DNA from: Gemmatimonas sp. UBA7669
Lineage (GTDB): Bacteria; Gemmatimonadota; Gemmatimonadetes; Gemmatimonadales; Gemmatimonadaceae
Length of the DNA stretch: 64,000 nt
NCBI RefSeq assembly: GCF_002483225.1
Contig: NZ_DLHL01000001.1
Location: 63,325-127,324 of the forward strand
Reading direction: 5' to 3'
This document shows, one piece after another, positions 1 through 18,691 of this stretch. The stretch's first letter is position 1. The number at the start of each line of letters is the position of its first letter. A model generated the notes under the pieces. That model was not told where the DNA came from. It saw only the letters and a list, made by a program, of their open reading frames with translations, and did not search any database. The translations under genes were made by a program, and so were the position numbers.

Positions 1-2
1 AC

Positions 3-1109: not shown

Positions 1110-1159
1110 GTGTCGGCTCCGCGACCCTGACGTGCCAGGGATGACGTCTCGTGTGCGCA

Positions 1160-2209: not shown

Positions 2210-2269
2210 CGGAGGTGCCTCCGTGAGTGATGCAGGGCCAACTGGCCCGATCGAGTGAATGAGTTCGAT

Positions 2270-2329
2270 GATGCGCGTCGCGATGCGCGTCGGGATGCTC
2301 GTCGCGATGCGCGTCGGGATGCTCATCGC
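2270..2329. repeat. 12-bp imperfect tandem repeat (GATGCGCGTCGS x5) covering the copB stop and downstream intergenic DNA
   Basis: Copies start at 2270, 2282, 2294, 2306 and 2318. Confidence 0.85.
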
Positions 2330-3147
2330 CAGATCCGCAGGCCGGCGGTGATGGTGCCGACGCTGCGCCGTTCGCCGAGGCCGTGCGCCATGGCCGCGGT
2401 CGCGCCGGTGCGCCGCAGCATCGACACGCCGACGTACGGCGCGAACTTTCGCCGGATCTCGTAGCGCATCCGCGCGCCGATCTCGACGTCGTTGAGACCC
2501 GAGCCAACGCCGATCTCCGGCACGGCCTGCACCGCCGCGTTGACCTCGATCCACGGTTGCACGATGAGCCGCTGCGTGAAGAGGAGGTCGAACGACGACT
2601 CGACCTCGAGCGAGACGTCGCCCTTGTCGCTGACGAGCAGCGTGGGCTCCACCTCGAACCAGCCCGGCGCCAGGCCGATGAAGCCGATCGCGAGCATGCC
2701 GCGCGTGAGGCGACCACCGGGCTCGCGCCGCCCGGTCGATGGATCACCGAAGTCGACCGGCGCGATGACCGTGCGCGGTCGCGTGTCGACGCGTCCGCCG
2801 GCGACGAACGACCAGAACGGCGTGATGAGCCGTCCGTAGAGCGCATCGCCCTGCATCTCTCCGCCACCGGACATCAGCGTCGACTGCTCTCCCTGCACGC
2901 GCAGATACAGGCGGCGATAGTCGCCGCCGATCCAGCTCACCAGCTCCACGTCGATCGGGCGCTCGGGCTGGTTGGCGTGGACTTCCAGCTGTTCGGCGAG
3001 GATGAACGTGCGGATGACGCGATCGAGGTCCATCCCATGTGCGGCGCCACCGGCCTGCGCGTGGACGCGTGCCGGCTGCACGAGCAGGAGCGCGGCGATC
3101 ACGAGACTCGAGCACATGACGCGCGCGCGATGCGTGACGACGCTCAT
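2323..3147 (-). CDS. copB: Copper resistance outer-membrane protein B
   Basis: ATG 3147 overlaps the copA stop (ATGA). WIGGDYRRLYL, LYGRLITPFW, GLAPGWFEVE, DLLFTQRLIVQP, GARMRYEIRRKFAPYVGV and the terminal GLRIW are typical of CopB. Confidence 0.92.
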   Translation of the reverse strand: MSVVTHRARVMCSSLVIAALLLVQPARVHAQAGGAAHGMDLDRVIRTFILAEQLEVHANQPERPIDVELVSWIGGDYRRLYLRVQGEQSTLMSGGGEMQGDALYGRLITPFWSFVAGGRVDTRPRTVIAPVDFGDPSTGRREPGGRLTRGMLAIGFIGLAPGWFEVEPTLLVSDKGDVSLEVESSFDLLFTQRLIVQPWIEVNAAVQAVPEIGVGSGLNDVEIGARMRYEIRRKFAPYVGVSMLRRTGATAAMAHGLGERRSVGTITAGLRIWR

Positions 3148-5165
3148 GATCTCGCCTCCCCCTCGGTGGTCATCGGCCCGCCGGGCTCCGACACGTGGAA
3201 CACGCGGAACATGCCGACATCCATGTGGAAGAGCACGTGACAGTGAAAGGCCCACGGTCCCGGATCCACCGGCGTCGCCAGCAGCGACACGCGCTCGGCA
3301 GGCTTCACGTTGATGGTGTGCACGTATGGGCACTCGGGCCCATGCCCGTTCTCGAGCTCCATGAACACGCCGTGCAGGTGCATCGGGTGCGCCATCATCG
3401 TGTCGTTCACGATGGTGAGGCGAATGCGCTCGCCGTGCTTGAGCGGGATCGGGTCGCGCGCATCGGAGAACTTGATGCCGTTGATCGACCACATGTAGCG
3501 CTCCATGTTGCCGGTCAGGTGCAGCTCGATCTCCCGCACAGGGGGCTCGAAGGTTTCGGCCGGCGTGAGCCGCTTCACGTCCGTCCAGACGAGCACGCGC
3601 CAACCATCTTCCCCGAGTCCGGCGCCAGGCTCCGAGAGCCGGCTCCGGGTTTCCATGGCCGTTCCGGCGCTTGCCGACCCGTGCGTGTTGTTGCCGTGCA
3701 TGACTGGCTCGGGAATCGTGCCGGGCGCCCGGAGGTTCGAGGCTCGAATGATGGTGCCGTCTCGCAACTGTCCCTCGAACACACCGGCGCCTCCGGATGC
3801 CGTCACGCCAGGCATGCTGCTCATGTCATGGCCCGCGTGACCTGATGCCGCTGCTGCCGCTGGCTTGGTCGCAGCCGCGGGCATGTCCATGCCCGGCATG
3901 CTCGCATCGGCGCCGGGCTTCGACGCCGTCCCCGTGCCCGACATGTCCATCCCAGGCATCGACATTCCCTCGTGCCCGCCCATCCCCATCGCCATGCCCA
4001 TGTCCACCATGTTGAGCGTGGGACGCGGCCGGCGGCGCGGGATCTCGGCGCTCATGCCGGCGCGCGGCGCGAGCGTGCCGCGTGCGTATCCCGAGCGATC
4101 CATCGACTCCGCGAAGATCGTGTACGCGCGATCCTCGGTGGGCTTCACGATCACATCGAATGTCTGCGCGATCTCGATGCGGAACTCGTCGAACGCGACG
4201 GGCTGCACGTGCTGGCCGCTCGCCTGCACGAGCGTCATCTCGAGGCCGGGAATGCGCACGTCGAAGTACGAACCCGCACCTGCATTGATGAAGCGCAACC
4301 GAACGCGCTCGCCTGCGCGGAACAGTCCGGTCCAGTTGGCCGCCGGCGGCAGACCGTTCAAGAGATACGTGTACGTCGAGCCCGTGACATCGGAAATGTC
4401 CGTGGGGGTCATGCGCATCTTGCCCCACTCCCAGCGGTCCGCGATGGTGGCCCGCAGCCCGTTCCGGTCGACGTCCCGGAAGAAGTCGCCGACGGTGCGG
4501 CGCTGGAAGTTGTAGTACGCCGACTGCTTCTTCAGGTTGTCGAGGATCTTGCCGGGGTCCTCGAAGGACCAGTCCGACAGCATGACCACATACTCGCGGT
4601 CGTACTGGAACGGCTCGGGTTCGGACGGGTCGATGATGAGCGGTCCGTAGTGGCCCAGCTGCTCCTGAAAGCCGGAGTGGCTGTGGTACCAGTAGGTGCC
4701 GTACTGCCGCAGCGGGAAGTCGTAGACGAACGTCTGCCCCGGATGGATGCCCGGGAAATTCACGCCCGGCACGCCATCCATGGCGTTCGGCACCAGCAGT
4801 CCATGCCAGTGAATGGAGGTGTCCTCACGCAACCGGTTCGTGACGTGAATCGTGGCACGCTCCCCTTCACGGAAGCGGAGCAACGGTCCAGGCACCGACC
4901 CGTTGATGGTCGTCGCCACGCTGCGCCGCCCGCCGAAGCCGAACGGCGTGCGATCAATGATGAGATCCACACGCGTGTCCCGACCGGAGACACCGGCCAA
5001 GGCGGCGCGGCCAGCGCCACGGTCGCTGGCAGGCAGCGCGTAGGCGGGCGCGAGGCGCTGCAAACCCGCCAGCGCGCCAACGGCGCCCGCCGCGTGCAGG
5101 AAACGGCGGCGTGTCACCGGGTGGGTAACGACGCCATCCGTGAAAGAGCGTTCCAAGTCGTTCAT
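3144..5165 (-). CDS. copA: CopA-family multicopper oxidase (Tat-exported) with Met-rich insert
   Basis: TRRRFL Tat signal; IHWHG, YWYHSH, HPMHLHG and HCHVLFHMDVGM copper-ligand motifs; MGMAMGMGGHEGMSMPGMDM insert. Confidence 0.97.
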   Translation of the reverse strand: MNDLERSFTDGVVTHPVTRRRFLHAAGAVGALAGLQRLAPAYALPASDRGAGRAALAGVSGRDTRVDLIIDRTPFGFGGRRSVATTINGSVPGPLLRFREGERATIHVTNRLREDTSIHWHGLLVPNAMDGVPGVNFPGIHPGQTFVYDFPLRQYGTYWYHSHSGFQEQLGHYGPLIIDPSEPEPFQYDREYVVMLSDWSFEDPGKILDNLKKQSAYYNFQRRTVGDFFRDVDRNGLRATIADRWEWGKMRMTPTDISDVTGSTYTYLLNGLPPAANWTGLFRAGERVRLRFINAGAGSYFDVRIPGLEMTLVQASGQHVQPVAFDEFRIEIAQTFDVIVKPTEDRAYTIFAESMDRSGYARGTLAPRAGMSAEIPRRRPRPTLNMVDMGMAMGMGGHEGMSMPGMDMSGTGTASKPGADASMPGMDMPAAATKPAAAAASGHAGHDMSSMPGVTASGGAGVFEGQLRDGTIIRASNLRAPGTIPEPVMHGNNTHGSASAGTAMETRSRLSEPGAGLGEDGWRVLVWTDVKRLTPAETFEPPVREIELHLTGNMERYMWSINGIKFSDARDPIPLKHGERIRLTIVNDTMMAHPMHLHGVFMELENGHGPECPYVHTINVKPAERVSLLATPVDPGPWAFHCHVLFHMDVGMFRVFHVSEPGGPMTTEGEARS

Positions 5166-5234
5166 GGTACCAGGAATCGAGTTCGGGGGACACGTCGAGA
5201 AGTGCCGTCAGTCAGGACCTCTCGTCGGTCACGC

Positions 5235-5249
5235 TTTACCACGCATAAA
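5235..5249. promoter_or_regulatory. Putative BlaI-family operator 1 (TTTAC-CACGC-ATAAA), upstream of copA
   Basis: One mismatch to the TTTAC-N5-GTAAA palindrome found four more times; 70 bp upstream of the copA ATG. Confidence 0.75.
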
Positions 5250-5292
5250 ATATGCGCGCAGGTACGCTGCTCTCGCTACGGTGCGCAACGCT

Positions 5293-5321
5293 TTGACATA
5301 CCCCGCCGGCCAGCATAGCTT
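5293..5321 (+). promoter_or_regulatory. Sigma70-type promoter for copC (TTGACA-N17-TAGCTT)
   Basis: Perfect -35 at 5293-5298, 17-bp spacer, -10 at 5316-5321. Confidence 0.8.
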
Positions 5322-5329
5322 CCGGATGC

Positions 5330-5344
5330 TTTACCGCGCGTAAA
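5330..5344. promoter_or_regulatory. Putative BlaI-family operator 2 (TTTAC-CGCGC-GTAAA)
   Basis: Perfect palindromic arms just downstream of the predicted copC transcription start. Confidence 0.85.
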
Positions 5345-5405
5345 ATGCCGCGGTCACGAGGCCAGCGATGCTCCATGGCCTCCCCACGCCCTCCCGAGAT
5401 TGCCA

Positions 5406-5855
5406 ATGCCCTCATCCACGTCAGCAGCAGATACGCCTGTCGTCACCACCGTCCCCAGCCGCCGTCGCGCCGCGGTGCGCCTGCTGGCCGGGGTTACCGC
5501 CGGGCTGCTCCTCGCGCTGCCGATGACCAACGTTGGTGCCGTTCGTCACATCCGCCTCGTCAGCTCCAGCCCGGCCAAGGACGCCCACGTGATGGCGCCC
5601 TTGCGCGAGATTCGCCTGACGTTCAGCGGCAAGATCGCGGTCTCCACCGCGAGCGTGCAGCTGCTGGCCGCCGATAGCACGCGGGTGAAGGTCGGCGCGC
5701 TCACGGCCGTGCCGGATTCTGAGCGCGTCGCCGTGGCAAAGGTCTCGGAGCCGCTGAAGAACGGGACCTACACCGTGCAGTGGAAGGCCATCGCCGCGGA
5801 CGGCGCGGCGGGGTCCGGGTCGTACAGCTTCATGTACATGGCCGCGAAGAAGTAA
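5406..5855 (+). CDS. copC: CopC-family periplasmic copper-binding protein (atypical, DGH motif replaced by DGA)
   Basis: Signal peptide, then HIRLVSSSPAKD...IRLTFSGKI...GTYTVQWKAIAADG; divergent from copA. Confidence 0.85.
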   Translation: MPSSTSAADTPVVTTVPSRRRAAVRLLAGVTAGLLLALPMTNVGAVRHIRLVSSSPAKDAHVMAPLREIRLTFSGKIAVSTASVQLLAADSTRVKVGALTAVPDSERVAVAKVSEPLKNGTYTVQWKAIAADGAAGSGSYSFMYMAAKK

Positions 5856-5894
5856 CGTACGGCCGGCACGCGGCGGGAGCGCAGGATGGCTTTG

Positions 5895-6974
5895 CTACCG
5901 CCGCGTGCCGGGCGCCACGTCATGCGGGCAGGGCGCCCCTGGGGTGCGTGGATGCCCCGCGAGGCAGAACAGATGCTCCACGGCCCAGCCTTGATGCTGC
6001 GTGCAGTGGCCCGCATGGGGCGCCCCGTGTTCACTAGACGCCGGAAGGGGGTGGGCGACGGCGAGGCCCGAGCTCCATACCAGCAGGAGCCCCGCGAATG
6101 CCGCCGCGAGTGACCGCCGTGTCACGTGCGTGACCACCGGCGCCTCCTCGCCCACCAGGCGATGGATGCGTCGGTCGAGCAGCGCATCACGCTGGATGCC
6201 GATGACGACGCCCGATCCGCTCGACAGCACGCGCCCGCCCAACTCGGGATCCTGACCGGGGACCCGCCACGCTGCCAGCTTCAGGATCGCGGAGGCCAGC
6301 ACCAGCGGCTGCCCCCGCACTGCCCTGTCGTCCGCCGCGATCTCGGCGTCGTCTGCCGCATCGGCCGCGAGGCGCCGCAATGCGGGCAGCCAGAACAACG
6401 CGCAGCCGACGAATCGCAGCACCGAGAGTCGGGCGGGATCGCGCCGACGTACATGTGCGTGCTCATGCGCGAGCACCGCGGTCAGCTCCTCATCGGAGAG
6501 CGCCTCAGGGAGACGGGACGCGACGTAAATGTGCGGCCGCACCCACCCAACCGTGAACGCGGGATTCGGCAGACCGTCGACGACGCGCAGCAACGTCGGC
6601 GGCACCCCGGCCGCCGCCGCCGCCGTCCAGAACGCATCGCGGTCTCGTGGTCGCACGGCCTCGACGGTGCCGAGCAACCGCCGAACGACCAGCCACGCTC
6701 GGCCGCGATCCCACACCGCATAGGTGAGCCCGGCGATCAGCAGTCCGTGAAACACCTCATGGACTGGCGCGAGCAGCTGATGCACTGCGATGACGCAGAT
6801 CACCCAGACATGATCACGCCCTGCCAGCAACTGATCGAGGCGGGACCCAACATGATGCGCCAGCACCGGACTCGTAGCGAGCAGAATGAGGACGCCCGTC
6901 GCGAAGAGGACGAGTCGGCGATGGCGGCCCTCATGCGCGCCGGTGGCTTGGGCGGGACTGTCGCGGTGTGGCAT
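5895..6974 (-). CDS. BlaR1-like M56 family membrane metallopeptidase with His/Cys-rich extramembrane segments
   Basis: PAFTVGWVRPHIYV, ELTAVLAHEHAHVRRRDP (HExxH), EIAADDRA and LDRRIHRL are M56 signatures; AGGAGG RBS; directly downstream of the BlaI-family gene. Confidence 0.9.
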   Translation of the reverse strand: MPHRDSPAQATGAHEGRHRRLVLFATGVLILLATSPVLAHHVGSRLDQLLAGRDHVWVICVIAVHQLLAPVHEVFHGLLIAGLTYAVWDRGRAWLVVRRLLGTVEAVRPRDRDAFWTAAAAAGVPPTLLRVVDGLPNPAFTVGWVRPHIYVASRLPEALSDEELTAVLAHEHAHVRRRDPARLSVLRFVGCALFWLPALRRLAADAADDAEIAADDRAVRGQPLVLASAILKLAAWRVPGQDPELGGRVLSSGSGVVIGIQRDALLDRRIHRLVGEEAPVVTHVTRRSLAAAFAGLLLVWSSGLAVAHPLPASSEHGAPHAGHCTQHQGWAVEHLFCLAGHPRTPGAPCPHDVAPGTRR

Positions 6975-7042
6975 GTCTCCTCCTGCGCTCGCTGCGAGGA
7001 ATGGCGGCCGACCGAGGTCGCGTCGCCCTGCGTCGCCGCAGC

Positions 7043-7543
7043 TCAGCCCTTGAGCCGGCGCCGAATGAGGCGCGCGAGGTCTTCGAGCTGCTGGGGATCC
7101 TGCTCCGCGAGCACGTCGACCAGCGAGGAGGCCACCGCCTGCGGACCGAAAGAGAGAATGCCCTCGACCACACGCCGGGACGCATGCGCCATGAAATCGG
7201 CCTCCGTCATCACCGCCTCGAAATGCAACAGGCCATCGCGAGTCTTGCGGCGCAGCAAACGCTTGGCGACGAGCTTGTTGAGCACCGTGATCACGGTGAG
7301 CGCTGCGATGGCATGTGTTCGTGCCACGCGCTCGTGCACCACGCGCGCCGGCGACGGCACCCCCAATGCCCAGACGGCGGTCATCACCCGCGCTTCGAGG
7401 TCGCCCAAGACCTTCGCGAGGCCGTCCGCCGAGAGTCGAACGGTGTCCTGCAGCCGCAGCTCGGACGCGCGTGGCGCGCCCAACCCCCGGCGCTTCGTGG
7501 CCCCCGGCGCTTCCAACGTTGATGACTTACGTGGCTTGGACAC
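7043..7543 (-). CDS. BlaI/MecI/CopY family transcriptional repressor
   Basis: LGDLEARVMTAVW...TVITVLNKLVAKRLLRR winged helix and C-terminal dimerisation helices; no C-terminal CxC metal motif. Exact start uncertain. Confidence 0.92.
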   Translation of the reverse strand: MSKPRKSSTLEAPGATKRRGLGAPRASELRLQDTVRLSADGLAKVLGDLEARVMTAVWALGVPSPARVVHERVARTHAIAALTVITVLNKLVAKRLLRRKTRDGLLHFEAVMTEADFMAHASRRVVEGILSFGPQAVASSLVDVLAEQDPQQLEDLARLIRRRLKG

Positions 7544-7578
7544 GAACGACCCTCTGGCGGAAGAATGCTACTGCTGCC

Positions 7579-7607
7579 AACCTACCTGACGCTTTACCCG
7601 CCGTAAA
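7579..7607 (-). promoter_or_regulatory. Promoter of blaI-blaR (TTTACG-N17-TAGGTT) with operator 3 (TTTAC-CCGCC-GTAAA, 7593-7607) overlapping the -35
   Basis: The operator half-site doubles as the -35; exact 17-bp spacer to the -10 at 7584-7579. Confidence 0.8.
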
Positions 7608-7738
7608 GAGGCACCGGCTCTCGCGTGCTCCGGCGGTACCCCACCCTCGCCGTCCCGCCCCGTGGCTTACGACGCATCGCCCGCTCCGCGTTCATGAACA
7701 CCGCCCATCGGCCCGCGCCATCGTCGCCCCCAGACATG

Positions 7739-9028
<1,290 letters not shown>

Positions 9029-9077
9029 CTGGTCAGCACCGCGTTCTCCTTCCCTCTCCTTTCACACCACATCATCC

Positions 9078-9593
9078 ATGAAGCGATCACCTACGGTTGT
9101 GCTGCTGCTGTCCGCCGCGTTTGCATCGGTTGGAGACGCACAACGTCCCACGAGTGCTCCTGCCGCGCGGCAGCGAAGCGAGGAGGCGGCCGCCACGGCG
9201 ACGCTGCGCGCCGTGTTCGCGGCGTCCGAGCGCAACGACATGAAAGCGCTAGATACGCTGTACGCCGGCGACAGCCTCACGGTCGTCGAGGGCGCCGGGA
9301 TCAATCGCGGCTGGACGGACTACCGCGATCATCACCTGGCGCCCGAGCTGAAAGAGATGAAGAACTTCCATTACCGCCCGGTGGACATCGAGATGCACGT
9401 GTCCGGGAACGTCGCCTGGGCGATCTTCCGATACAACCTCAAGGGCGAGATGGGCGCTCGCACGCTGGACAACGTCGGCCGCGGCACTGCGATCCTCGAG
9501 CGCCGTGGATCGGGCGCGGCGACGCGGTGGGTCGTGCGCCACACGCAGACGAGTTCGCGCGCGCGCCGGCCGAACGATCCGCCGGCCGGATGA
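9078..9593 (+). CDS. Secreted NTF2-like (SnoaL/DUF4440) protein 1
   Basis: Signal peptide; LRAVFAASERNDMKALDTLY, YRDHHL and SGNVAWA...GRGTAILERR fit an NTF2-like fold. Confidence 0.75.
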   Translation: MKRSPTVVLLLSAAFASVGDAQRPTSAPAARQRSEEAAATATLRAVFAASERNDMKALDTLYAGDSLTVVEGAGINRGWTDYRDHHLAPELKEMKNFHYRPVDIEMHVSGNVAWAIFRYNLKGEMGARTLDNVGRGTAILERRGSGAATRWVVRHTQTSSRARRPNDPPAG

Positions 9594-9616
9594 AACCCAA
9601 GGCGCGCTGAATGCAG

Positions 9617-9658
9617 ATCGAGCCGGTCATCGTGATGCAGCGATGACCGGCTCGATTT
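9617..9658. terminator. Bidirectional hairpin terminator between convergent genes
   Basis: 16-bp perfect stem ATCGAGCCGGTCATCG / CGATGACCGGCTCGAT with an 8-nt loop. Confidence 0.75.
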
Positions 9659-9716
9659 GTGTGTCAGCCGCGGTGACGATGCGGCAACATCGGACGACAG
9701 CGAAGCGCCGTCCCGC

Positions 9717-10589
9717 CTAGTGCTTCGTGCCGACGTTGAACACGAACGTCGTACGCGAGACGTCCCACTCCCTCGCGGCGCCGCCCGCCTTCCGGCTGGC
9801 GTATGCGGACCGCAGCATGACCGGACCGGCCTTCGCCAGCGGGATGTGCACGACGCCCTTCGCGTCCGCCGTGAACGGGACGCGGGTGACCGAGGCCGTT
9901 GCGGCTCCCGCGCTGTCGAGGCCCGTCGCGAGCTCGATGCCGATGCCGGCGACGGGGCTTCCGCTCCCGAGCATCCGCACGTGCAGCGTGTCACCAACCT
10001 GCACGTGCGATGGGTCGTTCACCGGGACGAACTCAAGGCGTATCCCGGCTGGCTTGGCGAAGGCGCGCGGTCCGCCCGTGCCGATCTCCACAATGGTGGC
10101 GGCGTAGCCGCCGTGCGTGAAGATGACGCTGTCGAGACCCGCAAACGCGTTCTCCCGCTCCAGGCGCGCGGCTTCGAGCGCCCCACCCTCGGCCTTGAGA
10201 AACCGAATGACGCCGGCTGGCGTCTCACGAAACACGCGCGGGGCCAGCCCGATCACGATCAGGTACTGGCCGGCGGCCGCGGGTTTGTGATGCAACTGGA
10301 GCGAGGTGCCCTGAACTCCCATCTCCGTGATCTTGGCCGACGAGGACGCGCCGATGATTCGTGCGTCGACGATGCGCTCCGCCGGCACCGCGGTCCCCGC
10401 CGGAAACTTCGTTCCGCCTTGTCGCACGTTGAAGTGCATCGTGGCATTCGCCGCGAAGGCGACGAGGTCGGGAATGATCCAGGTGTCGTGTGCCAACGCG
10501 GTCGAGGCGAGGGATACCATCGCGGCCGCCGCAGCAACGAGCGTGCGAGCGGTGGGCGCTGACGTGTGCTTCCGGCGGGTGGTGCGCAT
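9717..10589 (-). CDS. DUF4198 family secreted protein 1
   Basis: Signal peptide ending ALA|HDTWIIPD; GIRLEFVPVNDP...VGDTLHVRML; FTADAKGVV...GPVML DUF4198 pattern. Confidence 0.8.
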   Translation of the reverse strand: MRTTRRKHTSAPTARTLVAAAAAMVSLASTALAHDTWIIPDLVAFAANATMHFNVRQGGTKFPAGTAVPAERIVDARIIGASSSAKITEMGVQGTSLQLHHKPAAAGQYLIVIGLAPRVFRETPAGVIRFLKAEGGALEAARLERENAFAGLDSVIFTHGGYAATIVEIGTGGPRAFAKPAGIRLEFVPVNDPSHVQVGDTLHVRMLGSGSPVAGIGIELATGLDSAGAATASVTRVPFTADAKGVVHIPLAKAGPVMLRSAYASRKAGGAAREWDVSRTTFVFNVGTKH

Positions 10590-10645
10590 AGGGAAAGCCT
10601 TGGGCGGGGGTCTGACGGCTGTCGATGGTTGCTCGACTGACTTGC

Positions 10646-10674
10646 AGGATACGACGGGTTTTACGAGGTGTAAA
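10646..10674 (-). promoter_or_regulatory. Promoter (TTTACA-N17-TATCCT) with operator 4 (TTTAC-GAGGT-GTAAA, 10660-10674) overlapping the -35
   Basis: Same geometry as the blaI promoter. Confidence 0.82.
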
Positions 10675-10755
10675 GGCGGCGCGTCGGGAATCGCACTCCC
10701 CGGTGCACACGTACTCGGCGAACTGGGGCTCGTGCCGCTCGCGCGGAAGGCGTAC

Positions 10756-10770
10756 TTTACCCACGGTAAA
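10756..10770. promoter_or_regulatory. Putative operator 5 (TTTAC-CCACG-GTAAA) upstream of the NTF2-DUF4198-BNR-TlpA-CcdA operon
   Basis: Perfect palindromic arms overlapping a -10-like TACTTT at 10753-10758; 38 bp before ATG 10809. Confidence 0.82.
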
Positions 10771-10808
10771 GAGTGCACCACTCCCGTCACTTCCCGCCCG
10801 GCGATCCC

Positions 10809-11276
10809 ATGCACCCCGTCCTGCGCCTTGGCGCGCTCCCTGTCGCGCTGGGAGTCTGCCTCCTCGCTTCCCCGGTCGCCGCCCAGGCCACCCGCGCCGA
10901 CTCCAGTGCCGCCGTGGCTGTAGTCGAGCAGTTCCACGCCGCCCTGACCGCCGGAGATTCTGCCCGTGCGGTGGCCGCCCTGGCCAGTGACGTGCTCGTC
11001 CTTGAGAGCGGCGCGATCCAGACCCGGACCGAGTATCTCGGCCACCACCTTGGCGCGGACATGAAGGCGAGCAAGGGATCCAAGGCGACGCGCACCGTGG
11101 TGCAGGTGCGGGTGATGGGAGACGCTGCGTACGTGGTCTCGAAGACCGTCTCGCCACCAACGGGTGCGGAGGGTTCGACGGGCTCGGAGATGGCAGAGCT
11201 GATGGTGCTTTCCAAGACAGCATCGGGCTGGAGCATCCGGGCCGTGCACTGGTCCTCGCGCCGGCGCCGCGCGTGA
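10809..11276 (+). CDS. Secreted NTF2-like (SnoaL/DUF4440) protein 2
   Basis: Signal peptide; AVVEQFHAALTAGD, YLGHHL and WSIRAVHWSS; shares the YxxHHL motif with protein 1. Confidence 0.8.
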   Translation: MHPVLRLGALPVALGVCLLASPVAAQATRADSSAAVAVVEQFHAALTAGDSARAVAALASDVLVLESGAIQTRTEYLGHHLGADMKASKGSKATRTVVQVRVMGDAAYVVSKTVSPPTGAEGSTGSEMAELMVLSKTASGWSIRAVHWSSRRRRA

Positions 11277-12178
11277 CGCGCAGTGGAGCAACCGCGGGCA
11301 GACGCAGTGCTCAAGGCCGCATACTTCGGGCAGCCGCCGTCGTCGCGGCATTGCTCGCAGGTTCGACGTCACTCCTGACCGCGCACGATTTCTGGCTGGT
11401 GCCTGATGCGTTCGCTGTGACCCCGGGCGGGCGCATCGCGCTGCGTGGTCAGACGTCGAGCCTGTTCCCGAGCAGTCTGTCGGCCGTCACGCCGGATCGC
11501 ATCGTGGCCGCGCGCGTGGTCACGGCCAACACGGCCGTTACGGTACGCGATGTCTCGGTGCTCGGGACATCGCTTCGACTTGCGCACCCGGCAGCAGCGG
11601 CTGGACAGCATCTGGTCGGCGTGCAGCTCGCGCCGCGGAACGTCCGCGAATCCCCTGCCAGCTTTCGTCGGTATCTCGATCTGGAGGGGGCGCCGGAGGC
11701 ACGGGAGCGCTATGAGCGTGAGGGGCTGCTCCCCCGCGTGGGCGGGGACAGCATCACGCGCCGCTATGCCAAGTACGCGAAGACCGTGGTCGAAGTCGGC
11801 CGCGGGCCGCGCGCCTTTCAGCGGTTGCTGGATCACCCGCTGGAGTTCGTGCCGCTCTCCGATCCGTCGGCGCTCCGCGTCGGCGACACCTTGCGGATTC
11901 GGCTCGTGTTGCTCGGCAAACCGGCGACGTCGGCGCATCTCCATGCGGGCTCTATACCGGCCGGACCAACCGCGCTCACCGACACCGCCGCGGCACGCCG
12001 CGCCGCCGCGCGTGACGTGAAGCTGGAGACCGACGCGGGTGGCGTCGCCGCCATCGTGGTGACACAGCCCGGTCTCTGGAACATCCGTACCCTGCAGATC
12101 GTGCCCGCCGCGAAGGGCTCCGGGGCCGACTGGGATGTGCATTGGGCCACGTTGGTCTTCTCGGTCGCACGACGCTGA
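11273..12178 (+). CDS. DUF4198 family secreted protein 2
   Basis: GTGA overlap with the upstream gene; LTA|HDFWLVPD; RRYAKYAKT; PLEFVPLSDP; TDAGGVA...GLWNIR. Confidence 0.85.
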   Translation: MTRSGATAGRRSAQGRILRAAAVVAALLAGSTSLLTAHDFWLVPDAFAVTPGGRIALRGQTSSLFPSSLSAVTPDRIVAARVVTANTAVTVRDVSVLGTSLRLAHPAAAAGQHLVGVQLAPRNVRESPASFRRYLDLEGAPEARERYEREGLLPRVGGDSITRRYAKYAKTVVEVGRGPRAFQRLLDHPLEFVPLSDPSALRVGDTLRIRLVLLGKPATSAHLHAGSIPAGPTALTDTAAARRAAARDVKLETDAGGVAAIVVTQPGLWNIRTLQIVPAAKGSGADWDVHWATLVFSVARR

Positions 12179-12216
12179 CCGCCGACGCTCGCCTTCCCTT
12201 CAACCATAGGCATCCG

Positions 12217-13506
12217 ATGAAGCGTCGTCTGCTTGTTGTGTGCACTGCGCTCGGCGCAGTGGCCGTCAGTATGGGCAATCGCGCCCCCGCGGATGCTCCG
12301 TCCGGCGCTACGGAGCATGGATCGTCTGGACGCGTGCTCCCGGCGCGCATCGACAGCATCGGGAGTCCCGCGGCCCCCGGAAGCGCGGAGCCGTACCTCA
12401 CGGTGGGGCCAGACGGCCGGGTATACATGTCGTGGCTCGAGCCCGCGAATCCCGGCTACGCGCTTCGCTTCGCGGTGCACGATGGCACGCGCTGGTCGCC
12501 GGCCCAGACCATCGTCACGCGCAGCGACTTCTTCGTGAACTGGGCGGACTTCCCGTCGCTCGAAGTGCTCGGCGGCAACCGCCTCGCGGCGCACTGGCTG
12601 CAGCGCAATGGCACCGGCACGTATGCCTACGGGGTGCGCATCGCGCAGTCCGCCGACGGTGGCAAGACGTGGGGAGCGCCCGTCATCCCGCATCGCGACA
12701 CCTCCCAGACCGAGCATGGCTTCGTCGCCATGTGGAACGAGGGTGGCACGCTCGGCGCGGTGTGGCTCGACGGCCGGAAGTTCAAGCAGCCAGGCCACGG
12801 CACGCCGGCGTCCGGCGGGCATGACGCCGGCAACGAGATGATGCTGGTGTCGACCACGTTGGACGCGAAGGGAGTGCGGGGGCCCGAGGTCCGACTGGAT
12901 GAGCGCACCTGCGACTGCTGCCAGAACGCCGCCGTGATGACGAGCAGCGGGCCGATTGTCGCCTACCGCAACCGAACGACCGACGAGATCCGCGACATCT
13001 ATGTCACCCGTCGAGTCGGCGCGAAATGGGTCGCCGGTGCCCCTGTTCACAACGACAACTGGAAGATTGCGGCGTGTCCGGTGAACGGGCCGGCACTCGC
13101 CGCGAGCGGCGCTCGCGTCGCCATTGCGTGGTTCACCGCCCCCGGGGACAGCGGCCGCGTCAACGTCGCCTTCTCCGACAACGCCGGCGCGACGTTCAGC
13201 GCCCCGGTGCGCGTCGACGGCGGGAGCCCCGCAGGGCGCGTGGACGTGGCGCTACTTCCTGATGGCGCCGCGCTCGTAACCTGGGTGGAGCGCGTCGGCG
13301 GCGACGTCGCCGCGGTGCGGTCCCGGCGCGTCGGGCGCGACGGCAAGGTCGGTGCGCCAATGACCATCGCCTCCAGCTCCGCGGCGCGCGCCAGCGGCTT
13401 TCCGCGCGCCGCGATCACTGGATCGAACGTGCTCTTTGCGTGGACGGTGCCCGGCCGGCCGTCGGCGCTGCGTGTTGCCCGTGCCTCGCTCGCGGAGTTT
13501 CGATGA
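12217..13506 (+). CDS. BNR/Asp-box (sialidase-like beta-propeller) secreted protein with CDCC motif
   Basis: SADGGKTW and SDNAGATFS Asp-boxes; FFVNWADFPS, ERTCDCCQ and WKIAACPVNGP. Confidence 0.8.
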   Translation: MKRRLLVVCTALGAVAVSMGNRAPADAPSGATEHGSSGRVLPARIDSIGSPAAPGSAEPYLTVGPDGRVYMSWLEPANPGYALRFAVHDGTRWSPAQTIVTRSDFFVNWADFPSLEVLGGNRLAAHWLQRNGTGTYAYGVRIAQSADGGKTWGAPVIPHRDTSQTEHGFVAMWNEGGTLGAVWLDGRKFKQPGHGTPASGGHDAGNEMMLVSTTLDAKGVRGPEVRLDERTCDCCQNAAVMTSSGPIVAYRNRTTDEIRDIYVTRRVGAKWVAGAPVHNDNWKIAACPVNGPALAASGARVAIAWFTAPGDSGRVNVAFSDNAGATFSAPVRVDGGSPAGRVDVALLPDGAALVTWVERVGGDVAAVRSRRVGRDGKVGAPMTIASSSAARASGFPRAAITGSNVLFAWTVPGRPSALRVARASLAEFR

Positions 13507-14054
13507 GTTGTGGGGACCCAACGCGCCGGGCCACGGCGCTGTTCACGTTCGCATTGCTCGCGATCAGCGGCTGCACGTCAGCGGAGCGCAGCGGGAACGC
13601 CGCGGCGGGCGACGGCCGAGTGGAGGTTGGCTTTGCAGCTCCGGCGTACGCCACGGTGTCGCTTGACGGCGATTCGGTTTCGCTCGCCGGGCAGCGTGGC
13701 AAGGTCGTGCTGCTCAACGTGTGGGCGACGTGGTGTCACCCGTGCCGCACGGAGATCCCGGAGCTGCGCGCGATCCATGCGAAGTATCAGGCGCAGGGCC
13801 TGGAACTCATCGGCGTCAGCGTCGATACGGACGGCACCGACGAGGCCATCCGCACCTTCATGCGCGACTTCCAGATGACCTTCCCAATCTGGCGCGATCC
13901 GGACGAGCGGGTGTCGACACAGTTCCTCGTGGTGGGTGTGCCGGCGACGTTCCTGATCGACAAGGCAGGCGTCCTCCGCTGGCGAAAGACCGGCCCGATT
14001 GCGCCGGGCGATACGTCGCTCACGGCGGCTATCGAACGCGCGCTGGGCTCGTAG
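13503..14054 (+). CDS. TlpA/ResA family thiol-disulfide oxidoreductase
   Basis: VVLLNVWATWCHPCRTEIP; GVPATFLIDKAG; ATGA overlap with the upstream gene. Confidence 0.92.
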   Translation: MSCGDPTRRATALFTFALLAISGCTSAERSGNAAAGDGRVEVGFAAPAYATVSLDGDSVSLAGQRGKVVLLNVWATWCHPCRTEIPELRAIHAKYQAQGLELIGVSVDTDGTDEAIRTFMRDFQMTFPIWRDPDERVSTQFLVVGVPATFLIDKAGVLRWRKTGPIAPGDTSLTAAIERALGS

Positions 14055-14779
14055 TGCAGTCCGCGTCCATTGGCGTCACCATCAGCTTCACCGCCGGCGT
14101 CCTGAGCTTCCTCTCGCCGTGCGTGCTGCCGCTCATCCCGAGCTACGTGAGCTTCATCACGGGCATGAGCCTCGACGACGTGCAGCGCTCTCGCCGGACG
14201 ACGCTGCTCCACGCGCTGCTCTTCGTCGCTGGCTTCACCATCGTCTTCATGGCGCTGGGCGCCACGGCCACGGTGCTCGGCCGCCTGTTCCATCAGGAGC
14301 GCGATTGGGTGGGCCGCGTGGGCGGCGTGCTGGTGATCGTGCTCGGGCTCTACTTGCTGGGCGTCTTCAACATCGGCGCGTTCTCCCGCGAACGTCGCGT
14401 GCACATCGCGAACAAACCCCTGGGCTACCTCGGCACGGTGCTCGTGGGGATGGCGTTCGCCGCCGGGTGGACCCCGTGCATCGGCCCGATCCTGGGCGGC
14501 GTGCTCACCTACACGGCAAGTTCGGCGGACCTGAACCGCGGGCTGTTGCTGCTCTTCGCGTACTCGCTCGGGCTGGCGCTCCCGTTCCTGCTCGCCGCGC
14601 TCATGATCGACAAGTTCATGGCAGTCTTTCAGCGCTACAAAGGGGCGCTCGTGTGGATGTCGCGCGCGTCCGGGGTGTTGTTGATCGGGATCGGCATCCT
14701 GATGATCACCGGCAGCATGACCGTCCTCACGACGTGGCTGCAGCAGTGGACGCCGGACGCACTCCGCAACCGCATCTAG
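14054..14779 (+). CDS. ccdA: Cytochrome c biogenesis/thiol-disulfide transporter CcdA
   Basis: AGVLSFLSPCVLPLIPSY and AAGWTPCIGPILG motifs; GTG overlaps the tlpA stop. Confidence 0.92.
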   Translation: MQSASIGVTISFTAGVLSFLSPCVLPLIPSYVSFITGMSLDDVQRSRRTTLLHALLFVAGFTIVFMALGATATVLGRLFHQERDWVGRVGGVLVIVLGLYLLGVFNIGAFSRERRVHIANKPLGYLGTVLVGMAFAAGWTPCIGPILGGVLTYTASSADLNRGLLLLFAYSLGLALPFLLAALMIDKFMAVFQRYKGALVWMSRASGVLLIGIGILMITGSMTVLTTWLQQWTPDALRNRI

Positions 14780-14842
14780 GGATCGGCGCGTCGAGCCGCT
14801 GACCGGCGTGGTGTCGCCTCCCTTCGCGGCTCGCGTTGCGCC

Positions 14843-15388
14843 TCAGCGCAACGTCTCAGGTGCGATCCGCTCCGCCCGAAGGGTGCGCTGCCCATAGGGC
14901 GTCAGGCCGCGGGGCTTGTAGATCGAGAGAACGGTGGTCACCAGCAACACGAACAGCGCGGCGCCCGCGTTCGCGATCAGTTGGATACGCACCTGCCGCT
15001 CGTCGCCTGCGGCGAGCACCCGCGTCGAGGCCACGTCGGCCAGGTAGCTGATCGGACGCATGCGCAGGAGCAGGATCGCGCTTGCCGGCACGGTGAGGAC
15101 CAGCTTGGCAATCACCCAGTAGTGCCGGACCAGCCCCCACAGCGTCCCGAGTGACTGGACAAGGCCGGTCACCAAGGTAGCGATGCACAGTGGGACGATC
15201 ACGGCCCACGCCGTCGTGTCCATCGACAGGTAGGCAGCGCGAACGCTCAGGGGGTCAGGGCTGCGGATGCCGGCGACCGCCAGCGCCAGAAAGGCGGCGA
15301 CCGCGCCGAACCAGCCGAGCGAGGAGGTCACGTGCGCGGTGAGGGCGGCCTTCCGGAGCCACGGACCCATGGGAGCGAGGCGCATCAC
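14843..15388 (-). CDS. DUF2269-like four-helix membrane protein
   Basis: LTAHVTSSLGWFGAVAAFLAL, TGLVQSLGTLWGLVRHYWVIAKL and LSIYKPRGLT patterns. Confidence 0.7.
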   Translation of the reverse strand: MMRLAPMGPWLRKAALTAHVTSSLGWFGAVAAFLALAVAGIRSPDPLSVRAAYLSMDTTAWAVIVPLCIATLVTGLVQSLGTLWGLVRHYWVIAKLVLTVPASAILLLRMRPISYLADVASTRVLAAGDERQVRIQLIANAGAALFVLLVTTVLSIYKPRGLTPYGQRTLRAERIAPETLR

Positions 15389-15564
15389 GATCCGTGACCG
15401 CGGAAGCCACCGCCGGCGAGGTGCATGACGACGAAGGCGAGCAGCAGCACGGCCAGCACCGCGGCGAACACCTTCACCCAGCGTGGCATGGGTGCGATGG
15501 ATTCGTCTCCCCCGTCCTGGCGGGGGCGCTCAGTAGGCTCCGTGTTCGGACGCAGTGCAGCCAT
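15385..15564 (-). CDS. Small single-TM protein (PRWVKVF...HLAGGGFRGHGS)
   Basis: 59 aa; ATGA-coupled to the DUF2269-like gene; one hydrophobic helix with a C-terminal His/Gly tail. Confidence 0.6.
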   Translation of the reverse strand: MAALRPNTEPTERPRQDGGDESIAPMPRWVKVFAAVLAVLLLAFVVMHLAGGGFRGHGS

Positions 15565-15583
15565 GGAAGCACTCCAGCGAGTG

Positions 15584-15844
15584 TTAATTGCGCGATGGCG
15601 CCACAGCGGGCGGGCGGCCGTCGGTCCCGGCCGGCACACAACACCCGGCACCCTGCTGAACCGGCGGACAGCGTACCGACCCGTACGAGCAGAACACGCA
15701 ACAGTCGCCCGCCTTTGGGCGGAGCAGCGTCTGGCATCCGGCGCACGGGTGGAAGAAAACACAGGCGTCCGTTGGCATCTGCAGGACGTCGTGGTGTCGG
15801 CAGATCGGGCACCACATCGTTGACTCCAGAATGGTCGGTGGCAT
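15584..15844 (-). CDS. GDCCVxC domain-containing small Cys-rich protein
   Basis: CPICRH...MPTDACVFFHPCAGCQTLLRPKAGDCCVFCSYGSVRCPPVQ. Confidence 0.85.
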   Translation of the reverse strand: MPPTILESTMWCPICRHHDVLQMPTDACVFFHPCAGCQTLLRPKAGDCCVFCSYGSVRCPPVQQGAGCCVPAGTDGRPPAVAPSRN

Positions 15845-16047
15845 CGAGAAACCTACCACGGGCGTCGCCACCGAAAGCGCCCTCCGGGGCGGCCGGATCG
15901 CCACAGCAGGAAGGCGGACGGGAGACGACCCCGAAGGCGGCGCCTAGATTCTCAGGTGGCACGGCACATCGACGCCGTGCAGCAGCGGTGGACCAGGCGG
16001 CGGCGCGCTTCCTACCCACGGCGACATTCCACGAACCCACGGCGTTG

Positions 16048-17025
16048 ATGACCACAGCATCGATGGATGAGGCGGAGGATTTCGCGTACCACTACCCACC
16101 AGAACTGTTGGCGCTGCTGATCGAGGTGATCCCGCGCCTCAGCCGCGCCAAGCGCGACGTGCTCCTGTTCTTCCGCGGTGCCGGGACGCCCGAACGGCTC
16201 TTTGCCGATCTCGCTGACCAACTCGCCACCGCGCCGGACGGCGTCCGCAAGGCGGATCTCGCGCGGACCGTGTTGACGCGGGTCAATGACGGCGGGGATC
16301 CTCTGCTCCGCGTCCGCAGCGAAATCGTCAAGCGCGTGTGCGAGTGCACCGACTTCAGCCGATGCTGGCCGGACGACCAACTCATCGCGCACGGGCTCGT
16401 GGCTCGGGTCCAGCACGTGGTGAACGTCAAGGACACCTTCACGCGCATCAACCTCGAGCGGCAGCGCGAACAGCAACTGCGGCGCGAGGGCATTGAGCGG
16501 ACCGCCGCCGAGCAGGCCGACGCCCTGCGACAGCGCGCGATGGTCCAGCAGGCGTTCTTCGCGCTCTTCGGCGAGCCGGATGCGCACCGGCGGGGCAAAG
16601 CACTCGAAGGCGTGCTGAACGCGCTGTTCGCGCTCGATGGCCTGCTGGTGCGCGAGGCCTTCACCCTGCGCGGCAAGCCCGGCGATGGCATCATCGAGCA
16701 GATCGATGGCGTCGTCCAGCTCGACAGCCATCTCTACCTCGTGGAGATGAAGTGGTTGAACGCGCCCCTCGGGGCCGGTGACGTGGCCCAGCATCTGGTC
16801 CGCCTCTACCATCGCGGGGATATGCGCGGGCTGTTCCTGAGCTATACCCCGTTCACCCCGGCCGCCCTCGACGCGTGCCGGGATGCCCTGCACCAGCGCG
16901 TCGTGTCACTCGTGCTCCTCGAAGAGTTCGTCGGCGTGCTGAACCGCGGCGACAACCTCGCGGCCATGCTCCGCGCGAAGGTCACGGCCGCCATGATCGA
17001 GAAGCGCCCCTTCCTCCCGGTGTAG
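16048..17025 (+). CDS. Mrr-like restriction endonuclease with uncharacterised N-terminal helical domain
   Basis: RGKALEGVLNALF...EQIDG...YLVEMKW...GLFLSYTPFT is an Mrr_cat-type PD-(D/E)XK motif. Confidence 0.75.
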   Translation: MTTASMDEAEDFAYHYPPELLALLIEVIPRLSRAKRDVLLFFRGAGTPERLFADLADQLATAPDGVRKADLARTVLTRVNDGGDPLLRVRSEIVKRVCECTDFSRCWPDDQLIAHGLVARVQHVVNVKDTFTRINLERQREQQLRREGIERTAAEQADALRQRAMVQQAFFALFGEPDAHRRGKALEGVLNALFALDGLLVREAFTLRGKPGDGIIEQIDGVVQLDSHLYLVEMKWLNAPLGAGDVAQHLVRLYHRGDMRGLFLSYTPFTPAALDACRDALHQRVVSLVLLEEFVGVLNRGDNLAAMLRAKVTAAMIEKRPFLPV

Positions 17026-17512
17026 CGGCTCCCATCGCGTAGAGCCGGAGCACCGAACGACCGCTGTCGTGCCCGGGACGTCGTCTGCGTGAGGCGCGAA
17101 CGTGTGCTGAGGGGCCGGGCGACCGCGGCGCAGTGGGCCGCCGAGACCTGAACTGAGAGCGCACACCCTTGGCGAGCAGTCCCCCTCGGCGCGCGCGCCC
17201 GAGGCAGGCGCCGACCTGCAGGGCCGCGTGGTGTCGGCTGCTACCTGTCCCTGCGATGTGTGACATCCAACCCGGCTCACCACAGCATCTACGCCCAACA
17301 CGGGGCAACGCCGTGCTGTCCACCGAACACGCACGCGACCGCCTCGGACCGGACGCGGCCGAACCAAGTCCATACAACGGATCCTGGCACTGAAGGAGTC
17401 CGTCCGTTCCGTATCTGCGCCCCGTCCACCGCATACGGGCAGCGCCGTGCCGACGCACTGTGTCTCACGACCTCGTGCAGAGGCCGTGTTTCGCCGTCTC
17501 ATCACAAATCGC

Positions 17513-17615
17513 CGTGTCCAAACCAGCTAAGCTATTGATTTGACATGCCTTCCTTGGGCGATTTGGACACGCGACATGGACACGCCCGGATATAACGGCA
17601 ACGGCGGCAAGGTGG
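17513..17615. mobile_element. Probable att site / right boundary of an integrated island
   Basis: CGTGTCCA (17513-17520) is inverted relative to direct repeats TGGACACGC (17564-17572 and 17577-17585). A perfect IHF consensus (minus strand AATCAA-TAGC-TTA, 17528-17540) lies between them. The Hsp15 reading frame begins abruptly after ~17600. Confidence 0.7.
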
Positions 17616-17908
17616 ATGTGAACGGTGACCGGGCGAAGCGCGCCAAGCAGATCCAGGCCGGTGACACGGTACGCCTGAGGCAGGGCCCGATCGAATGGGT
17701 GCTGGTGGTGCGCGAAGCGGCGGGCCGGCGCGGGTCGGCGGACATCGCGCGTGGCCTCTACGACGAGACTGACGACGGACGCCGCAAACGCGAGACTGTG
17801 ACAGAGCAACTGCGCAGCATGCCCACGGCGTTCTCCCATGGTGACAGCAAACCCGGCAAGCGCGACCGTCGGGCTCTGAGGCGCCTCAAAGGCGACGAAG
17901 CGTGGTAA
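17576..17908 (+). pseudogene. hslR: 5'-truncated Hsp15 (S4-domain ribosome-associated heat shock protein)
   Basis: GGKVDVNGDRAK...GDTVRLRQG...RRG...LYDET...KPGKRDRR is Hsp15, but the conserved N-terminal RIDKWLWAARFFKTR helix is absent and replaced by MDTPGYNGN. Confidence 0.75.
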
Positions 17909-18019: not shown

Positions 18020-18691
18020 ATGCGGATACTCGTCATCGAAGATGACCACCTCGTCGCGGATCTGATGCGGCAGGTGCTGGTGGACGACGGCTACACGGTG
18101 GACGTGGCGGCAGCGGCCGAAGAAGGTCGGCAGTTGGTGGCGGCGCAGCCCTACGACGCCATCGTGCTGGACCTCGAGCTGCCCGATCGCCACGGCATTC
18201 AGTTGTTGCAGGACTTCCGTCGGGAAGGCAGTACGATTCCCATCGTGGTGGCCACAGCGCACGACAGCAACGCGGATGTGGTCCGCGCTCTCGATGCAGG
18301 CGCCGATGACTACCTGCCCAAGCCATTTGCGAACGAAGTCCTCGCCGCGCGCGTGCGTGCCGCGGTGCGACGTGGCGGCGCGCGCAGCATGGAGAAGGTG
18401 CAGGTCGGTGATCTGACTCTGCACCGCGTGAATCACGAAGTGCAGTGTCACGGTCAGCTGCTCAATCTCACGGCGCGGCAGTACGCGCTGCTCGAGTACC
18501 TGGCCATGCGCGCCGGCGAAACCGTGCGACGCTCGGCGCTGCTCGAGCACGTCTGGCACCTCAAGTTCGACCCCGGCTCGAACGTGGTCGACGTGCACGT
18601 GGCGCAGTTGCGCAAGCGGCTGCGCGATGCCAACAGCACGGTGGACATTCGCACCGTGCGCGGCGAAGGCTACGCGCTCGACGTGACCTGA
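18020..18691 (+). CDS. OmpR-family response regulator (no adjacent kinase)
   Basis: ILVIEDD, VLDLELPD and GADDYLPKPF receiver motifs; NVVDVHV...IRTVRGEGY winged helix. Confidence 0.95.
   Translation: MRILVIEDDHLVADLMRQVLVDDGYTVDVAAAAEEGRQLVAAQPYDAIVLDLELPDRHGIQLLQDFRREGSTIPIVVATAHDSNADVVRALDAGADDYLPKPFANEVLAARVRAAVRRGGARSMEKVQVGDLTLHRVNHEVQCHGQLLNLTARQYALLEYLAMRAGETVRRSALLEHVWHLKFDPGSNVVDVHVAQLRKRLRDANSTVDIRTVRGEGYALDVT

Follow-up and report, generated by a model that had tools for sequence, protein, structure and literature searches.

Near position 17600 of the DNA analysed here, a cluster of short repeats and a perfect match to the IHF consensus abut a truncated reading frame for Hsp15, the product of hslR. 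This raises the question of whether the junction is the edge of a mobile element and, if so, what kind of machinery placed it there. The window, by which we mean the whole stretch of 64,000 nucleotides that was analysed, is C4:63325-127324 of the 63-contig assembly of Gemmatimonas sp. UBA7669. We conclude that window positions 17455-17601 are very probably the right end (attR) of a large integrative island, seated in codon ~43 of hslR and moved by a module of four genes.

hslR is interrupted at codon ~43

The truncated Hsp15 frame runs from the GGC at 17603 to a stop codon at 17906-17908, and its first ~43 codons are absent. By tblastn, residues 33-128 of E. coli Hsp15 align to this frame and residues 3-32 align, with 77% identity, at C14:127016-127105. 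The 5′ part of hslR (…RLDKWLWAARFFKTRALAAEAIE) thus lies on a separate contig, at C14:126978-127105, where it has a normal start (MSRGRLQDEEADDESPPGKVRLDKWLWAARFFKTRALAAEAIE) and then breaks into TATATCCGAAGG…. No second or island-borne spare copy of hslR was found in the genome by tblastn. The part that remains in the window is the following.

17602..17908, plus strand: 3′ part of hslR (Hsp15), starting with the final base of an Asp/Glu codon and extending to the stop codon (tblastn)

This fragment aligns with the intact hslR of relatives exactly from base 17602 on. The C-terminal part of hslR is present in 28 of the 30 related genomes searched; in the closest relatives the gene is uninterrupted (…GCC ATC GAC GGC GGC AAG…), and relatives with an intact hslR keep the same flanking genes. 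Over the 1.8 kb that precede the C14 breakpoint, and up to GCCATTGA, the sequence is collinear with the DNA upstream of the intact hslR in genomes G012 and G010, and the window is collinear with the same two genomes from GGCGGCAAG through the hslR stop codon. Because both flanks are collinear with intact relatives, the insertion can be placed between C14:127104/5 and window 17601/2. hslR is inactivated by this insertion at codon ~43. Any truncated product would be without the first ~43 residues, which in Hsp15 make up half, the first, of an S4-like RNA-binding domain. Further downstream, a response-regulator gene (window 18020-18691) stands between hslR and a RidA-like gene and is absent from that place in G012 and G010.

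A first-pass annotation, made from the window, had proposed that an integrative element targets hslR, and had advised comparison with related genomes; the split gene here and the intact gene in close relatives bear this out. It had also expected an integrase and the 5′ piece of hslR upstream of the window. Both exist at the far end of the island, and the hslR peptide is almost exactly the one predicted, but they are not upstream on the same contig and lie instead on C14, ~134 kb away via contig C21. Among the hits examined in our literature search there was no report of hslR as an integration target.

The same insertion in two other genomes

A scan with IntA, the first recombinase of the module described below, identified the metagenome-assembled genome GEMMA1 (87% identity), which belongs to the same genus as UBA7669, and a small Gemmatimonas contig, L019 (99%). 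In GEMMA1 the 5′ piece of hslR is followed by the same GTATATCCGAAGGTT, and the 3′ piece is found 53.8 kb away on the same 653-kb contig. The GEMMA1 element (C3:103717-157479) is thus 53,763 bp long and occupies the same hslR codon as the UBA7669 insertion. A further genome, G014, has the same right junction; the adjacent element DNA is 83-90% identical to window 5571-14779 and the chromosomal flank beyond hslR only ~73% identical. IntB was not found in G014, whose assembly is 84% complete.

Between UBA7669 and GEMMA1 the recombinase genes are ~85% identical and element DNA overall is 85-100% identical, compared with 72-81% for the chromosomal flanks. Moreover, starting at the end of IntB, a stretch of 10.4 kb (C14:133799-144188) matches C3:137527-147907 of GEMMA1 (G031) with 100% identity. 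As the identity of the element is far above that of the chromosomal flanks, these data show recent horizontal exchange, and the island is a mosaic in which some exchange has been very recent.

Anatomy of the island ends

The features of the right end, and the left terminus with which it pairs, are as follows.

17460..17471, plus strand: subterminal repeat GTGTCTCACGAC, conserved in UBA7669, GEMMA1 and G014
17494..17505, plus strand: subterminal repeat CCGTCTCATCAC, in the same orientation as GTGTCTCACGAC, a conserved block in the three right ends
17513..17520, plus strand: CGTGTCCA, an inverted copy of the TGGACACG repeat; GTGTCCA is invariant in the three right ends
17527..17545, no strand assigned: AT-rich block CTAAGCTATTGATTTGACA, which includes the IHF-consensus match, in surroundings of 66-67% GC
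17528-17540, minus strand: IHF-consensus match AATCAATAGCTTA, a perfect fit to WATCAANNNNTTR
17564-17571 and 17577-17584, plus strand: two direct TGGACACG repeats with a 13-bp period, conserved in sequence and spacing in the three elements
17576..17578, plus strand: in-frame ATG within the second TGGACACG repeat, a putative start that would fuse MDTPGYNGN to truncated Hsp15 (17576-17602)
17586..17595, plus strand: right terminus CCGGATATAA, which repeats the left terminus in inverted orientation and ends with the last base of the element
17596..17601, plus strand: 6-bp spacer CGGCAA between the terminus and host sequence
C14:127105-127113: left terminus GTATATCCG

The repeats, the IHF consensus and the Hsp15 frame all lie where the first-pass annotation had placed them. 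In longer form the direct repeats read TGGACACGC (17564-17572 and 17577-17585), followed by GGATATAACGGCAACGGCGGCAAGG. Within the 64-kb window TGGACACG has 8 matches against 4.1 expected, with three of them in 72 bp here, and the IHF consensus has a single match against 0.15 expected. The three right ends have in common GTGTCTCACGAC, CGTCTCA, GTGTCCA, CTAAGYTATTG, TGGACACG-N5-TGGACAC and CCSGATATAA, whereas DNA deeper inside the three elements does not align. Chance is an unlikely source of the repeat and IHF features, since the junction repeats, their spacing, the AT-rich block and the terminus are conserved in two other genomes. At the left end, a related repeat, GAGTCTCACG, lies ~17-26 bp inside the terminus and is conserved in UBA7669 and GEMMA1. 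These short conserved repeats are plausibly protein-binding sites, as predicted from their conservation, and the TGGACACG copies are likely candidates for sites bound by the recombinases.

The reading of this region as arm-type repeats with an IHF site held only in part: the repeats are conserved in three elements, but the IHF consensus, complete in UBA7669 and G014, is lost in GEMMA1, and it is CTAAGYTATTG that is found in all three. The genome has one HU/IHF-family gene (C57:109713-109997), the product of which scores nearer to IHF subunits than to HU, yet below the NCBIfam cut-offs.

The in-frame ATG in the last repeat, also present in GEMMA1 and G014, could in principle start a putative truncated Hsp15 product. 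It may simply be a consequence of the conserved element end, and no promoter-like site for the truncated hslR was found.

The termini GTATATCCG and TTATATCCG are inverted with respect to each other and identical at 8 of 9 positions; beyond 9-10 bp the ends diverge. The two ends of the UBA7669 element share an inverted TATATCCG, and the end sequences are single-copy in the genome. A left junction ending in a copy of AACGGCGGCAAGG had been anticipated. No such copy is present there, and the two junctions of UBA7669 have no core repeat in common.

The sole variable stretch at the right junction is the 6-bp spacer, which reads CGGCAA in UBA7669, GATCGA in GEMMA1 and GGGCAA in G014. After the spacer all three junctions resume with (C/T)GGCGGCAAGG. 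At the left junction (attL) the corresponding 6 bp are CATTGA in UBA7669 and GATCGA in GEMMA1, both of which fit the native CATCGA/GATCGA. In UBA7669 the left six belong to codons of the host gene itself and those at the right are foreign; in GEMMA1, GATCGA stands at both junctions. Under the mechanism proposed below, the GEMMA1 element would have come from another hslR site. The UBA7669 and G014 elements, which have related right halves, would have brought SGGCAA with them from a site occupied earlier. A further CGGCAA stands 3 nt downstream in hslR itself, and this repetition accounts for the AACGGC-AACGGC picked out in the first reading of the sequence; it may be coincidence.

A four-gene recombinase module at the left end

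Just inside the left end of the island, on C14, a gene for a PemK/MazF-type toxin is followed by four tightly packed genes on the plus strand.

C14:128238-129806, plus strand: IntA, 522 aa
C14:129799-131919, plus strand: second protein, 706 aa, with a recombinase fold
C14:131904-134204, plus strand: IntB, 766 aa
C14:134207-134647, plus strand: fourth protein, a small HTH protein of 145 aa

The genes overlap or sit 2 nt apart and are translationally coupled. IntA matches Phage_int_SAM_1, Phage_integrase and XerC/XerD, the Pfam match being weak, and its match to GmtY of the NCBIfam 'gamma-mobile-trio' models (E 6e-4) is likewise weak and far under the cut-off. IntA is an ordinary tyrosine recombinase. 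IntB is a large tyrosine recombinase in which the R-K-R-H-Y set is complete: among 54 aligned members of its family R410, K443, R555 and Y586 are invariant and H577 nearly so, and there are four C-terminal cysteines. Its N-terminal part resembles the SAM-like domain of integrases, and its AlphaFold model (pLDDT 85.7) finds its best fold matches in Cre, XerH, XerA, Flp and lambda integrase.

In an alignment of the second protein with its relatives, box I reads TG.PP and not TG.R, so that the first catalytic arginine is missing, and RLRK and DHT…Y are conserved. Its model is weaker (pLDDT 62.8), and the fold matches are all to tyrosine recombinases. Relatives of this protein occupy the same position in other loci. 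The fourth protein has a conserved helix-turn-helix (…LT..NLA.EAGVSRAT.YR…), followed in relatives by a coiled-coil tail.

Pfam, NCBIfam and PHROG, the SE ('gamma-mobile-trio') models included, contain no model that matches proteins 2, 3 or 4, and none of the 54 IntB relatives matches an NCBIfam model. A direct sequence search of the PDB with proteins 2 and 3 gave no match, and single-sequence hhalign among the three large proteins was uninformative. A six-frame Phage_integrase scan of the whole genome produced six matches, none of them in the island, and missed IntA, whose Pfam match is weak. A serine recombinase was considered because of the missing core repeat; there is no gene with a Resolvase domain in the genome, and this candidate was rejected.

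Directly after the module, at C14:134737-137139, lies a RecD2-like helicase that occupies two overlapping frames; the record has ambiguous bases (N) here. An intact RecD2-like counterpart follows the module in the metagenome locus L027, and the helicase may be a fifth conserved gene of the module.

Ahead of the module, the left end is more variable. In GEMMA1, upstream of intA (L018:5796-5900), ~11 tandem copies of GCGCCCCTTG sit just before a conserved intA leader of ~90 bp (CTTAGGTCGCTGGCC…GTGTCTCGCCGCC…TATAC); the left end of the UBA7669 element has a similar pair, CTTAGATCGC…GCGTGTCTC. Positions 1-1793 of L019, a contig from a Gemmatimonas MAG, hold a PemK-intA region of 95% identity encoding an IntA of 99% identity, preceded by unrelated DNA and with no hslR. 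Given this unrelated DNA, a second slot for variable cargo seems to lie between the left terminus and intA. Reading of the sequence suggests that the slot in GEMMA1, 4 kb long, holds a putative restriction-endonuclease-like gene, a putative protein-kinase gene and a third large ORF.

Extent and cargo of the island

The island runs from C14:127105-144763 through C21 to C4:1-63324 and then into the window, where it forms the following segment.

1..17595, no strand assigned: right-hand island cargo, including multicopper oxidase, CopC, DUF4198 and DsbD-type proteins

The earlier suggestion that the whole of the window left of the junction is cargo is supported. The interior of the GEMMA1 element is unbroken from DNA like that of C14 into DNA like that of C21:1523-17239 (99.6%, then 90.5% identity). 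C21 starts and ends within inverted IS21-type istA genes, and the matching 3′ halves of istB are found where C14 ends and where C4 starts, in orientations that fit. The assembly breaks are thus explained by two inverted IS21-like copies with identical middles that were collapsed, and we infer the order C14, IS21, C21, IS21, C4 from these sequence ends. The 21 bases shared by the C14 end and the C4 start had raised the possibility of an unknown IS; the two inverted IS21-like copies fit better. Contig C60 begins with the same 24 bases as the IS21 break points. On this path the island amounts to ~17.7 + 32.7 + 80.9 kb plus two IS copies, or ~134 kb.

Further cargo includes several HMA P-type ATPases and RND pumps; on C4, left of the window, there are HMA P-type ATPases and an RND pump. 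Moreover, the left cargo contains a complete QatABCD system on the minus strand at C14:137770-143095 (L014:11771-16919), for which PADLOC returned QatA at 6e-118, QatB at 7e-30, QatC at 2e-102 and QatD at 1e-75.

Proposed mechanism and alternatives

By analogy with SEs, Tn554 and GInts, we propose that the recombinases would bind the inverted terminal 9-mers GTATATCCG and CSGATATAA. The two catalytic recombinases would cut on either side of the 6-bp spacer, the exact cuts being deduced from three junctions, and the ends would be joined into a circle with the joint CCGGATATAA-NNNNNN-GTATATCCG. This circle would then recombine with hslR at GC|CATYGA|YGGCGGC, the uninterrupted target site presumably reading GCCATTGAYGGCGGC. 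After integration the host 6 bp would be left at the left junction and the circle-borne 6 bp at the right. The GTGTCYCA and TGGACAC repeats, together with the AT-rich block, are candidate accessory sites for the second and fourth proteins or for an IHF-like protein.

Whether the module still works is a separate matter. The fourth gene has an in-frame TAG (C14:134645-134647; L014:8646-8648), after which the conserved coiled-coil continues in frame, and GEMMA1 carries the identical TAG allele. This stop codon makes present-day mobility doubtful, and by analogy the island may now be locked in place. GinD, Srap and TnpC, the counterparts of the fourth protein, have been reported to be essential for recombination (PMC5385486, PMC10214605).

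The most serious alternative is accordingly that the boundary is a relic, which entered by the mechanism proposed and is now fixed. We put this at somewhat less than an even chance. The TAG allele common to GEMMA1 takes away the conserved coiled-coil half of a protein with essential counterparts, although the helix-turn-helix half is intact and IntA, the second protein and IntB are all full length. In addition, IS elements have invaded the island, inside which two IS21-like copies lie. Against this, two species have the TAG-bearing 10.4 kb with 100% identity, a sign of very recent exchange. Finally, IntB was not found in G014, but that assembly is incomplete.

A lambda- or ICE-type att site would involve a single integrase, arm repeats, bending by IHF, an Xis and an identical core. 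This was the machinery assumed in the first-pass annotation, and it is consistent with the direct and inverted repeats and the perfect IHF consensus by the junction, and with the one IHF-like gene in the genome. We consider it very improbable. There is no single Int/Xis pair at either end, the six Phage_integrase matches of the genome scan, which missed IntA, all lie outside the island, and the junctions of UBA7669 share no core. What is found in place of an Int/Xis machinery is the four-gene module, with inverted 9-mers around a variable 6-bp spacer and an IHF consensus that GEMMA1 has lost.

A DDE-type transposon of the Tn7 or Mu kind, with terminal inverted repeats and several transposase-binding sites, is harder still to credit. 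It would accommodate the terminal inverted repeats and the multiple subterminal repeats at both ends, but no DDE transposase adjoins either end, and the genes at the left end have a tyrosine-recombinase fold. Moreover, UBA7669 has no target-site duplication, and three elements sit at one codon. A duplication of TA or TATA, of the DDE/mariner type, was also tried on the junction: TA would create a stop codon in hslR and TATA would add four residues that are absent in relatives, and both were rejected. Lastly, that hslR was split by chromosomal rearrangement or by an assembly artefact is a negligible prospect, as the junctions are identical in two independent assemblies, the GEMMA1 insertion is whole on one 653-kb contig and the UBA7669 end sequences are single-copy, even though different contigs hold the two halves of the gene and IS elements abound in the genome.

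Comparison with known systems

Integration of the island by the four-gene module can be set beside several described systems. In architecture and junction behaviour SEs fit best, GInts and Tn554 fit partly, and RIT and lambda-type elements do not fit at all. The link to SEs rests on architecture and fold, the proteins standing outside the NCBIfam SE families by sequence.

As in SEs, four coupled genes stand at the left end in the order ordinary recombinase, protein with the fold and an incomplete site, large recombinase and helper (intA-tfp-intB-srap; PMC10214605, PMC9345347). The island further resembles SEs in its imperfect terminal inverted repeats and specific target gene, in its junctions, where the 6 bp of attL are of host type and those of attR are different and brought by the element, and in that no transfer genes were seen near the module. 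It differs from them in several respects. Its host belongs to the Gemmatimonadota, whereas SEs are reported only in Gammaproteobacteria; its terminal repeat is 9 bp, whereas the SE motifs C and C′ are 13-19 bp; and it is ~54-134 kb long, compared with an SE median of 15.7 kb. The second protein of the island keeps its conserved tyrosine, unlike that of SEs, and IntA matches GmtY only weakly and proteins 2-4 match the SE models not at all. None of the hits examined in our literature search reported SE-type elements outside the Gammaproteobacteria.

GInts, compared by description, likewise have three recombinase-like genes and a small HTH/HLH gene at the 5′ end (PMC5385486). They share with the island a cargo that is large and variable, with genes for metal resistance and defence, as well as a short AT-rich 3′ end and site-specific insertion into a gene, and 6-nt staggered cuts with variant junction sequences are a feature of GInts (PMC5385486). 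However, the non-catalytic protein is third in ginABCD and second in the island. GInts are also flanked by imperfect direct repeats of 10-17 nt, whereas UBA7669 has none and GEMMA1 has 6 bp.

Tn554, an element of 6.7 kb, has a strongly preferred target and no regular target duplication, as does the island. Unlike the island, it has tnpA-tnpB-tnpC only, with no counterpart of the second protein, and its hosts are Firmicutes (staphylococci). A 6-bp sequence from the previous site is carried to one junction of Tn554 (PMC10214605). RIT elements resemble the island in three adjacent tyrosine-recombinase genes and terminal inverted repeats. Their proteins, however, are 315-410 aa long and all have the catalytic tyrosine, their repeats measure 34 bp and a fourth gene is lacking (PMC10214605), compared with proteins of 522, 706 and 766 aa and a fourth gene in the island.

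Relatives of the module and significance

The module is rare, being found in 1 of 401 sampled genomes of the phylum and 2 of 87 of the genus. A word-indexed protein search returned only three near-identical relatives of IntB. An exhaustive HMMER search with IntB (E <= 0.001, clusters at 50% identity) gave 676 cluster representatives, mostly of ~700 aa. The four-gene order, with 4-nt overlaps, recurs in four distant metagenome contigs, and a Sphingopyxis plasmid has an annotated version with three genes. Relatives of IntB with 28-30% identity are encoded on 141 plasmids of Alphaproteobacteria and Actinomycetota, the hosts of these plasmids being Sphingomonadales, Agrobacterium/Rhizobium, Streptomyces, Rhodococcus and Mycolicibacterium. 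hslR was considered as the target of the distant relatives too and rejected, since it is not so in loci L026-L029 or L019.

In summary, a known kind of element, until now described mainly from Gammaproteobacteria and staphylococci, has here a new lineage, a new host phylum and a new target. A multi-recombinase element of the SE/GInt/Tn554 type is now recognised in the Gemmatimonadota, a phylum without an earlier description of one, and hslR codon ~43 is a protein-coding target that was not found in the literature searched. Such a module carries islands of ~54 to ~134 kb with copper and cation resistance and Qat phage defence. The rule that the 6 bp at the left are the host's and the 6 bp at the right imported, otherwise known only from a few laboratory events, gains support from three natural insertions at a single site. 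The insertion also explains the "short Hsp15" gene call and two contig breaks.

We hypothesise, with slightly better than even confidence, that the module is part of a large, unnamed lineage of SE-like four-gene modules well outside the Gammaproteobacteria, of which the Gemmatimonas branch homes on one hslR codon and carries more than 130 kb. If this is true, the narrow host range reported for SEs would be an effect of the search method and not of biology, and integration with an imported 6 bp would be an ancient and widely distributed means of moving very large islands.
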